Below are positions 7,006 to 51,768 of a stretch of 64,000 nucleotides of DNA, piece by piece. Within the stretch, counting starts at the first letter, position 1. Each line of letters begins with the position of its first letter. Under the pieces are notes generated by a model. The model ran no database searches and had not been told where the DNA came from. It saw nothing but the letters and a program-made list of their open reading frames with translations. The DNA lies in contig NC_043000.1 in NCBI RefSeq assembly GCF_006345805.1, forward strand, positions 107,198,001 through 107,262,000, given 5' to 3'. A program made the translations under genes and the position numbers. The DNA comes from Octopus sinensis. Lineage: Eukaryota.

Positions 7006-7387
7006 TTAATTAAAAGCAATTTGGTTACAAGAATCTACCGAAGGTTGAAACAGGGAGTCCAGAAGTGGATATTCAGTATTCATTTGTAATTCCCAACTCA
7101 TTTCAGGTGGTAAATATGTTTTATTTCCATGTAGAATTACATCACTGCTGCCGTTGATGGTAAATTCTGATGCCATTGCTGTAACATTGAATGAAGATAC
7201 AGCTTCATCTATTATCAGTCTATCTTCAAAGACATCACTATCATCATTCTCATTATTATTATTATTATAATTATTATTAATATTACCATCATTGTTATAA
7301 TCTTTCTCATGAGACAGCTTCTCTTCTTTAGATTTGGTTCTTTTGTTGTTTTTCAGTTTGCTTTTACATTTATGGCATTTTGAGTTT
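7006..7387 (-). CDS. Terminal coding exon ([11 protein letters not shown]...Asn-rich...acidic C-terminus...QIAFN*)
   Basis: cattag|A acceptor in phase 2; matches ORF 7006..7422; ends in TAA. Confidence 0.78.
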
Positions 7388-10300
7388 CTAATGAAAATGG
7401 AAAGAAAGATGGTTCTGATCAAAAGAAATGATACCAGTTCAAAGTGATTAGTCTAAAACAAAGAAATATAGTTGTGTAAAATAAGAAAATGTTCTTGAAA
7501 AGAAAAATGGTTTTAGCCTCAAAAAAATACATTTCTAGTATAAAGATATTTTCTTGTAGGATACATGGTTATAAAACAAAGTGCTAGGAGAACAAAAATG
7601 GCTCTAGTACAAAGAATTATGATTCTAAAACAAAAGCTATGGTTAATTCCACGACAGGCATGGATAACCTTTTTCAAGAAGCAGGTTGCATGATGTGTGA
7701 CTCATCATCAAGTAGACTGCACCACTAAAATAATTTTAGGCAATCTTTATTTTTAGACATGCCATTCACAATTGCCCATGAGTGTTATCAAGGAAATATG
7801 TGATCCTAGCACAAATAATTATAGTTCTAAAACAGAAAAAATATGTGCAATGTTATTACCAGTTCGAATATACCAGTGGCACGTTCGGACTTGTAAACAA
7901 GCCATTCACTGTGTTTTGTCATGGAGAAAATTTCTTGCTGTAGACAAATGGTGTAAATAAAACCTAAATCAGCTTGTAGCACCACCTATCCAGACTGTGA
8001 GATGCAAGAATTTTGGAGTGGTTATCTCCTCTTCAGTCACAGAAACTGAATGGTAGTGATGTAAGCTGATAAGAGAGACAATCTCTCTTATGTTATTCCG
8101 GTCATCATATACCAGCTGGTAACACAAATAGGCAGCCCACTGGTTGTAGAGTAAAGAAATGTAGTTTCTATTATTAAGAAATATGGTTACAGTAATAAAA
8201 AAAATGGTTTATGTTCTAAGAAATGTTGTTCTTGTCCAAAGAAATAAACTATTTGCAAGCAAACTTATTTCCATTTACCTCTTGCATATTTTTCTCCAAA
8301 TATCATTGAAGCCTTTAATTCCAATGCATCTGGAATCTCATTTACAAATCAAAAGAGTTGTTCCTGCTGTTTAGCTTGGGTAAACTCTTATCAAACACAC
8401 CTTATAATCAGATGACATCATTACCTAGTGTGTGTTGTCCCTTATTTAAAACAGATGAAAAAGTGGGATTTGAAAAGAATAAGTTACTATTTCAAGTAGG
8501 TACAGCAACAATGGAGAGCAGTGTTTCTCAACCTTTCTTTACTATTTTACACAGACAGGCCTACATAACCATTCGCTGTTAAAAAATCCTGTTATATTTT
8601 TATAATTAAATATTATTAGGACTTGTATAAACTAAATCGTTACAATATTGTGTGTATTGTAAAAGTATAACCAATTTATTGCAGATAAATTTTAACAACA
8701 AAATCTTATATGGACACTCATATAAGTCTTACAGACTCTTATTGAGAATCACTAATGTAAAGAGACTTTATCATTAACTTGTGATTATGGGTCAACAGAG
8801 TTATGTACCTTGCTCAAGGACACAATAAAACTGTGGTAGAATACAAACTTGCCAACATTGGGCCTCAAAATCCAAAGCAGGAAGGCACCTCTAAACTGAA
8901 ACTTTGGATGTCTTACAGACTTAGTTGGCTTACTCTCAGATTTCATCCCAGACAACCACTGCCCATTACTTCCATAGAATTGGTACTTCTATGTCAAGAA
9001 TCCTTTCTAGCTAAGAAAGAAGTACTCAAAACAAAGGAGCTTTATGTCCTTTAGTCAAAACCATTCCAGGAAAATTGGAAGGTTGAATGAAGTTGGAAGG
9101 AATGAGAATCTGTTAGAAAGAATAGTACACATAATGGACGTGAAGTTGGCAACCAATATTGATGTCTCATAAGCACCACAAGAAGCCAAAAGATGAAGAC
9201 AAAGATTTCTGTTGGGATTATGTAACATTAAAATTGGGTGAAGTAAATTGGGATCGAATCAGGTATTGGAAACTCCTTACTGTTAATGGTTATCTTTTGA
9301 TTGTCTTCCCCCTGTAACTCTCACAGAGTCTGACATAAAAACATCCCCATATATCCATGTCTAGCAATGATTATGTAAGCAAAAATAACACCAATCCTGA
9401 CAAAAATTAAAATGTTTAAGAGCTATCAACTGCTCAATGGTCCACAAATACATTAAATTTGAACTACTTTTAGGGACATTTCAAGGCCCACAGAGAACAC
9501 CTCAGTGGCTTGGTTGTGAGCTGCAGTTCATCTGTTCCCAAAACCTGGTTTACATTAAACTTTATATCTTGCACTAGAGAGATCGATGCATGAAAATATT
9601 ACAACTATCTTTCAGTTTATGCACAATTAAATTAATTATCTTAATCATGTTGTGCAACCTTTTGTATATAACTGGAATGGATATATTTTTAGGTACTGTA
9701 CAGCCCAAATAATGCAACTAAGCAGCCAGATCTCTGAAATCACACTACCTTCATATCATAAAAATAGGAGATATGTCTATTCAGAAATATCTTAAAAGCT
9801 GATAGGTTGTCCTAGCCTGGATTGCTTCTGATCAATTCAAGGTTGACCTAGAGTTAACCAGCAGCTTATTTCCATAGAATGAAATCAAATCAGTTTTGTA
9901 ATAGTTAGAGTCAGAATCTAACAAGAAAAAAATACTTATTGGTTGCTGAGGTAATAGAATCATTTATTCCATTCAGCTGCAAACATTATACTTTTCATCA
10001 TTTTGCTAAATATTTTTTGCATATTTTGCTAAAAATTTCTCCATTTCCTTTTTACAACATCAAGACACCAATTGCACAAAACAAAATCTAACATTTAAAA
10101 TTATTTCACACAATTTATTAAAACTAAAGATAGTATGTAACATTAGGTTAGTATCATCCTTCTGTACCAATGAAAGTGTGATATAGACTACTAAAAACCA
10201 AACATGCCTTTATATGAACAATCAACTTGTTAGAAATAGTAACCAATCTCACTCACATCACACACTACTGTTTTAAAGATGGCATGACACACTAGATAAC

Positions 10301-51742: not shown

Positions 51743-51768
51743 ATTCAAGATATGACTACAGTTGGAAC
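50995..51768 (-). CDS. Large exon, Ser/Gln/Asn-rich low-complexity N-terminal region ([13 protein letters not shown]...KPLTE)
   Basis: Long non-repeat ORF (286 aa in the track); acceptor tttcag|G at 51768; ATG at 51742; donor GAAA|gtatgt after 50995 (phase 1). Confidence 0.7.

Follow-up and report, generated by a model that had tools for sequence, protein, structure and literature searches.

We describe here a gene on the minus strand of a 64,000-nucleotide stretch of Octopus sinensis DNA (assembly GCF_006345805.1, contig NC_043000.1, forward-strand positions 107,198,001 to 107,262,000; we call this whole stretch the window and number positions from its first letter). An earlier note, made from the letters alone, had read positions 7006 to 51768 as a gene that joins a helix-loop-helix (HLH) region to an HMG box, a pairing known from the vertebrate meiosis initiator MEIOSIN (BHMG1). 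We find that octopus has this one gene of an old HMG-box family, as judged by a tree of HMG boxes, by an MPxRLRP motif behind the box and by the position of the HLH region. The family is known so far only through an oyster gene named 'Sox-like', and the octopus gene is a reduced version that exists as an annotated but unclassified RefSeq model. The oyster member is testis-specific, and the octopus protein is likely to be a male germ-line transcription factor in which the HMG box would bind and bend DNA and the HLH would serve for pairing only.

An HMG box of its own family

Searching with the whole octopus protein (exhaustively, against 1.84 billion representatives, with the family set taken among the best 150) singles out a family of single-box proteins in which the match extends past the HMG box. 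Its members come from chiton, bivalves, gastropods, Owenia, Lineus, Lingula, the millipede Chamberlinius, Ptychodera, Glandiceps and Branchiostoma, and thus from molluscs, an annelid, a nemertean, a brachiopod, a millipede, hemichordates and amphioxus; their source labels read uncharacterized or SRY-like. The family box opens with the signature RPxNGFxRFS. In a maximum-likelihood tree, 20 bilaterian family boxes, octopus included, form one clade (support 99/93, recovered in 98% of 200 bootstrap trees) that lies apart from the Sox, CIC+BBX, HBP1 and TCF clades. Note that this tree holds 65 boxes over 75 columns, few for so many rows: 59 proteins hand-picked from about 190 (mostly single-box, first box only) and six of the 30 octopus loci, without rows for vertebrate MEIOSIN or the oyster protein CgBHMG1, and with group labels assigned by motifs and Pfam except for two PDB-derived rows. 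An MPxRLRP-type sequence stands 81-86 residues after the box start in 23 of 24 listed proteins (the exception being a jellyfish protein), at 81 and as MPTRLRP in octopus, and among 126 other HMG boxes it occurs only in 28 further family members. For the millipede protein a weak N-terminal MATH domain is predicted, possibly because annotation has merged two genes.

The octopus box itself matches Pfam PF00505 with 66 bits (E 3.5e-18; residues 340-407 in the O. vulgaris form of the protein) and is modelled by AlphaFold2 with a predicted local confidence (pLDDT) of 94-98, its closest folds being CIC, HBP1 and Sox. It starts 29 residues past the sequence ANYALEL, in line with the distance of about 30 given in the earlier note, and it carries NGFIRF (within RPQNGFIRF), DNRNIS and HPDW. 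That note had likened the first of these to MEIOSIN and the other two to HBP1, CIC and BBX. All three motifs are present, but NGF is not diagnostic of MEIOSIN because HBP1-type boxes read NGF too, and the box falls outside the HBP1, CIC and BBX clades. The same holds for Sox. A Sox protein is expected to show the RPMNAFM motif and to match SRY at some 50% of positions or more; the octopus box, with RPQNGFIRF and no RPMNAFM, is 33% identical to SRY and lies outside the Sox clades of the tree.

More generally, the likeness to Sox (including SoxH/Sox30), CIC, BBX, HBP1 and TCF is that of the sequence-specific HMG class, which also supplies the best PDB matches, whereas the separate clades and the lack of both RPMNAFM and an AXH domain set the octopus protein apart. 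Identity to boxes of these groups is 33-42%. The HBP1 clade (100/97) excludes the octopus box, and Pfam finds no AXH domain in the octopus protein; the CIC+BBX clade (98/87) also excludes it while including other octopus genes. The octopus genome has genes of its own that we take, by motif, to be CIC, BBX, SoxH, SoxB, SoxC, SoxD and TCF. Orthology with SRY/Sox, CIC, BBX or HBP1 was accordingly rejected, the Sox, CIC+BBX and HBP1 boxes lying in separate clades among the 65, and the view that this HMG box belongs to none of them is upheld by its own clade and by the separate octopus CIC, BBX and SoxH.

When the eight coding exons are joined by script, with GT-AG at all seven introns, they give RefSeq XP_036358200.1 letter for letter (594 residues, one stop). 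Searched with the HMG exon, the protein collection yielded one match each from Octopus vulgaris and O. bimaculoides, and it was in their cluster that this protein, from LOC118763066 and labelled 'uncharacterized', was found. Support for the junctions comes from the RefSeq model and an agreeing O. vulgaris model. A single spliced protein holding both domains, as first proposed, is therefore what the exons encode, and the three exons singled out at the time (38058-37963, 36099-35985 and 33645-33483) check out in position, AG/GT ends and peptide. Of the outer bounds, 7006 marks the stop codon and 51768 the acceptor of the first coding exon; since an AG acceptor precedes the latter, an upstream non-coding exon is implied. 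Genome-wide, the 41 HMG matches include a single copy of the gene. Its coding exons, all on the minus strand, are as follows.

50995..51768, minus: exon 1 coding, ATG at 51742; residues 1-249, predicted disordered; 100% identical to XP_036358200.1
41133..41179, minus: 47-nt exon; residues 250-265; site of the basic region of other members, here not basic
37963..38058, minus: HLH helix 1 and loop; residues 266-297
35985..36099, minus: second helix of the HLH, then a short linker; residues 298-336
33483..33645, minus: HMG box up to profile position 51; residues 336-390, then a phase-2 intron
15131..15269, minus: end of HMG box (HPDW) and family motif MPTRLRP; residues 390-436, preceded by an 18.2-kb intron
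11269..11363, minus: basic exon; residues 437-468; isoform X2 terminates shortly after
7006..7387, minus: last coding exon; residues 468-594 and stop; opens with a lone CxxC, acidic tail after

The first of these (50995-51742 from the ATG) ends in a phase-1 donor, GTATGT, and its residues mostly have pLDDT below 45. A phase-0 intron at codon 297 parts the HLH loop from helix 2, and the phase-2 intron at codon 390 falls one residue past the Tyr of HMG helix 3. The exon at 33483..33645 by itself matches the Pfam HMG profile at E 7.9e-15, and residues 437-468 may contain nuclear localisation signals. An alternative last exon of O. vulgaris is also present in O. sinensis, about 3.6 kb left of the window (L058:6351-6404, minus strand); it encodes 18 residues, is 94% identical and has an AG acceptor and a stop, so that a third isoform without the CxxC and the acidic tail is possible.

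The HLH region and the CW finger

That the family carries a genuine HLH emerges from Pfam and from comparison with known structures. The Pfam HLH profile finds five of 18 representatives at E 1 or better and exceeds its cut-off only in amphioxus. Searched against the PDB, a profile built from six relatives draws 52 matches, almost all of them basic HLH (bHLH) chains (best E 3.6e-5), and the modelled amphioxus HLH (pLDDT 86) fits MITF, SCL and Myc with TM-scores of 0.77-0.81, but with E above 0.1.

In octopus the signal is fainter. Pfam HLH has no match at E 10 in the whole protein or in single exons, and a PDB sequence search with the 74-residue HLH stretch returns no match at E 10. A profile of 13 non-cephalopod relatives does hit residues 277-321, at 5.6 bits, a score equalled by two of 2000 whole-protein shuffles and by none of 2000 local shuffles; a second profile, from six sequences, gives 2.1 bits at residues 277-308 (12 of 2000 shuffles score as high), and hhalign puts the octopus HLH at the same place and in the same register, but with P 0.11. 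AlphaFold2, run with relatives, predicts a helix at 269-285, a loop and a helix at 297-324 (block pLDDT 67-89). The octopus HLH is a weak profile match at the family position with both helices predicted, but with no match to PF00010. An ESM Atlas search with residues 250-325 yields leads at best (its ten structure rows include a single HLH cluster, at a sub-threshold TM of 0.50), whole-model fold searches are filled by HMG chains and barely probe the HLH part, and a predicted homodimer of residues 252-325 scores 0.02, which neither supports nor opposes pairing.

The 13 residues before helix 1, where a basic region would lie, contain no K/R and three D/E in octopus. Two oysters also have no K/R there and a scallop has one, with 0-1 across five mollusc and nemertean rows, while millipede, amphioxus and jellyfish have 4-6, the jellyfish in the canonical E-R-x-R arrangement. 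Overall, the octopus HLH pattern is beyond chance but degenerate, and it lacks a basic region. HLH proteins of the Id/Emc type share this lack; Id proteins are not known to have a second DNA-binding domain, whereas in the octopus protein the HMG box supplies one.

How far has this degeneration gone? One might argue that in octopus the HLH no longer functions, being a mere relic, and that the protein is an orphan HMG factor of the Sox/CIC class. The lack of a Pfam HLH, the absence of basic residues, the replacement in helix 2 of a conserved Lys, Ile and Gln, the prior loss of the CW finger (below) and the several relatives that show no HLH all fit such a scenario. Yet both helices are predicted, and none of the 14 residues of helix 2 differs between O. 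sinensis and O. bimaculoides, compared with seven of 25 in the adjoining linker (Fisher P 0.03). On balance we consider a dead HLH rather unlikely.

A third domain, the CW finger (zf-CW), exceeds the Pfam threshold in 15 of the 18 representatives. Its loss in octopus explains why the earlier note passed over it. Searches with a profile built from 19 CW fingers of the family detect no finger in the octopus proteins, in the six frames of the window or in the 40 kb downstream (the best match in the window or downstream, at 11 bits, is unconvincing), and the five Pfam CW matches in the octopus genome are all on other contigs. What octopus retains is a lone CxxC 49 residues past MPTRLRP. Among relatives, 17 of 18 that have such a motif have it at 38-66 residues. 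Although it lacks flanking tryptophans and the CW profile scores -4.5 bits at the site, this CxxC is probably a remnant of the family finger. Two scallops are also without the finger. Going by these sequences, the CW finger is common in the family without defining it, and has been lost in octopus save for one CxxC. CW fingers read methylated H3K4, and through its finger the protein of most other animals would be tethered to chromatin that carries this mark, a link that octopus would have dropped.

Oyster relatives, the germ line and MEIOSIN

What might the octopus protein do? An indication comes from the oyster Crassostrea gigas, whose gene LOC105322460 matches the family profile at E 1.8e-83 (via its cluster representative). 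Named 'Sox-like' (CgSox-like; Sun, Yu and Li 2023, Aquaculture 566:739234), it is listed as expressed in the male gonad alone of nine tissues, with values of 22-39 in ripe testis, 0.4-0.9 in ripe ovary and 1.6-16.8 in resting gonad, and with a male/female log2 ratio of 5.5 (about 46-fold) that is 5.2 in C. sikamea (PMC12111275, tables S4-S6). It resembles the octopus gene in its HMG signature (46% identity over the box), in MPxRLRP at 81 and in an upstream HLH that lacks a basic region; it differs in that the oyster protein keeps the CW finger and has 330 residues between HLH and HMG box, against 55 in octopus. A germ-line role, as the earlier note had supposed, is thus likely, given that the oyster orthologue is specific to the male gonad.

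Oysters have another gene of similar make-up. CgBHMG1 (LOC105327228; Yue, Li and Yu 2021, Gene 790:145692), to which a citing paper ascribes a part in meiosis (PMC8945556), is found in all nine tissues with the same male bias of log2 5.5 (PMC12111275). Like the octopus gene, it combines HLH and HMG in one mollusc protein and is male-biased, but, as described, it is another locus with a CDD-detectable HLH, expression in nine of nine tissues and no CW finger listed. A survey table (PMC12530298, table S6) places XP_036358200.1 and the O. bimaculoides and oyster members under a generic SOX HMG model, in the listed rows without an orthology call, mentions a CW finger in one of the oyster proteins, and gives a different mollusc set, including C. 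gigas XP_011425869.2 (CgBHMG1), as HMG plus HLH. The HLH+HMG pairing is hence already known in molluscs, and the octopus gene is the other gene, not CgBHMG1. No second octopus HLH+HMG gene was seen when 41 HMG and 83 HLH matches in the genome were compared by place; split exons are easily missed in this way, so that this is no evidence of loss. One HMG-like exon elsewhere in the genome (L043, G000:C8223:57514-57633) is unassigned, with no HLH or CW in the 30 kb around it.

Putting these strands together, we envisage that, by analogy with the Sox/CIC/HBP1 class, the octopus HMG box would bind DNA in the minor groove and bend it, with possible extra DNA or partner contacts through the MPxRLRP tail motif, that the basic-less HLH would pair with a bHLH partner in the fashion of Id and make no contact with DNA or an E-box, and that the acidic tail would act as a transcriptional activator in spermatogonia or spermatocytes. 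The ancestral bilaterian protein may have been bHLH-HMG-CW. The basic region would then have been lost in molluscs and the CW finger in octopus and scallops; the presumptive working core that remains in octopus would be the HMG box together with its C-terminal motif. Partners, targets and timing of the octopus protein are inferred throughout.

A number of points weigh against this account. All measures of the octopus HLH come out weak (profile scores of 5.6 and 2.1 bits, P 0.11 by hhalign, nothing from Pfam); it could be a relic in decay, and the profile detects no HLH in gastropod, Solemya, Lingula and Ptychodera entries, some of which are perhaps incomplete models. In the tree of 75 columns, octopus is the first branch of the family clade and does not group with the molluscs. 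This basal placement is probably long-branch attraction; it nevertheless makes one-to-one orthology less sure. C. gigas was not itself a row of the tree, its oyster relative Saccostrea was. Finally, germ-line expression is borrowed from oyster by analogy: in an O. sinensis gonad study that uses different gene ids, the available text and supplement have no entry for the gene (PMC11202624), the supplements of PMC8353863 hold no match for it, and the available parts of PMC13219418, PMC10987912 and PMC12469842 add nothing further on it.

A different question is how the family relates to MEIOSIN. Vertebrate MEIOSIN/BHMG1 shares with it an N-terminal HLH, a C-terminal HMG box, long disordered regions, a link to the germ line and an HLH that is dispensable in some lineages, whereas the octopus gene's family adds the MPxRLRP motif and the CW finger. 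Might the family simply comprise the true invertebrate orthologues of MEIOSIN, with vertebrates having lost the CW finger and diverged fast, so that the octopus gene starts meiosis? The same two domains come in the same order, the family extends to amphioxus and hemichordates, and NGF in place of NAF in the box presumably matches MEIOSIN. However, as noted, HBP1-type boxes read NGF as well, and although the ESM Atlas feature search does list a 'meiosis initiator protein' cluster at rank 6 (score 0.83), HBP1-like and LEF/TCF clusters rank above it and the score is a lead only. Germ-line expression of the oyster member cuts both ways, as it is male-only. In vertebrates, MEIOSIN has lost its bHLH independently in zebrafish and hagfish with the HMG box as conserved core (PMC13637641), much as some family members keep the box without an HLH. 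Against orthology, on the other hand, molluscs have another HLH+HMG gene, with a CDD-detectable HLH, that already bears the name BHMG1, the octopus, O. bimaculoides and oyster proteins sit under the generic SOX model with no orthology call in the listed rows (PMC12530298), and the one identified neighbour of the octopus gene is none of those named beside human BHMG1 (see below). We therefore think direct orthology unlikely, and would describe the overall likeness to MEIOSIN as one in outline only, comprising HLH plus HMG, the germ line and a dispensable HLH.

The 2026 study of MEIOSIN is confined to vertebrates, leaves more distant species outside its survey and does not use the words 'invertebrate' or 'amphioxus' in its main text as available (PMC13637641); the available text of a sea anemone preprint mentions loss of 'Meiosin' and does not include the basis of the assignment; the positions of introns in the human MEIOSIN HMG box were not found in the accessible part of PMC13377809; and 'HMG' occurs zero times in the main text of the Bao 2017 bHLH survey.

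A scenario to which we give close to an even chance is that Sox-like and BHMG1/MEIOSIN are sister paralogues of one pre-bilaterian bHLH-HMG gene, with the octopus gene on the sister branch. Oysters do have two HLH+HMG genes, each strongly male-biased at log2 5.5, and a jellyfish (Sanderia) protein with full bHLH and HMG box, but neither CW finger nor motif, branches next to the family as its sister (94/87). This support is under the level starred in the tree, though, and the jellyfish protein has no relatives at E 1e-12 among 3548 candidates. Sister paralogy is compatible with our preferred explanation, a male germ-line factor of the oyster Sox-like family, and differs from it on ancestry only. 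Whatever weight is left beyond orthology and sister paralogy goes to separate fusions.

One such fusion, an HLH-HMG protein arising independently within cephalopods, was the other option raised in the earlier note. Short spacing and divergent sequence might be taken to favour it. But spacing is not a meaningful trait here, as the distance from HLH to HMG box ranges from 55 to 518 residues across ten members (octopus 55), and the HLH stands in the same order in orthologues from five other phyla, the pairing being common to amphioxus, hemichordate, millipede, annelid, nemertean, chiton and bivalves. We rejected a cephalopod-specific fusion on these grounds and regard it as exceedingly improbable.

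We found no description of a three-domain HLH-HMG-CW family in the open-licence literature. What looks undescribed is the family as an ancient HLH-HMG-CW transcription factor, probably of the male germ line, with a predicted histone-mark reader. It is a defined, single-copy, pan-bilaterian family that may bear on the onset of meiosis outside vertebrates, flies and worms, with an oyster member that is testis-specific and has already been studied under a misleading name. Naming the family also frames two questions: which mollusc HLH+HMG gene, if either, is the MEIOSIN orthologue, and does a transcription factor with a built-in CW reader act in male germ cells? The reduced state of the octopus gene limits the surprise. 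More boldly, and at somewhat less than even confidence, one may conjecture that an ancient bHLH-HMG-CW factor, retained in animals as far apart as millipede and amphioxus under the misleading labels 'Sox-like' or 'SRY-like', is either ancestral to vertebrate MEIOSIN or its sister, so that the switch for meiotic entry, for long regarded as confined to vertebrates, would go back to the first bilaterians, would once have included an H3K4-methylation reader, and would have been repeatedly pared down to its HMG core, in octopus, scallops, gastropods, zebrafish and hagfish.

Neighbouring genes and repeats

The next gene downstream, on the minus strand (L059:3776-4078 and L061:1834-2136), is RB-like, with a Pfam DUF3452 match at E 4.4e-18 in one exon; we take it to be a retinoblastoma-family gene of the p107/p130 type. 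Within 40 kb on each side it is the only neighbour recognised, and SIX5, DMPK, DMWD and RSPH6A, which lie beside human BHMG1, are not among what was found. STRA8, the MEIOSIN partner, binds RB proteins in mice (PMC13637641). The adjacency is probably chance, and one neighbour in a rearranged genome decides nothing on MEIOSIN orthology.

Elsewhere in the genome, intronless Sox-like genes are present as identical copies on separate small contigs (L004-L008 and L010-L013 in G000), five of one SoxB-like box and three of a divergent KNAFFIW box, reflecting either expansion or assembly redundancy. Within the window we also noted fragments at 3044-3547, 19952-20416, 26888-27187, 45979-46866 and 58281-59471 that we take to be reverse-transcriptase/LINE-like, the last being the longest with a 396-codon open frame, and others at 10386-10691, 12719-13369, 18142-18846 and 60221-61155 that are presumably mariner/Tc1 transposase-like. 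The intron before the helix-1 exon contains a G-rich, tandem-like repeat at 38360-39150, with a GC content of 0.49 compared with 0.36 for the window.

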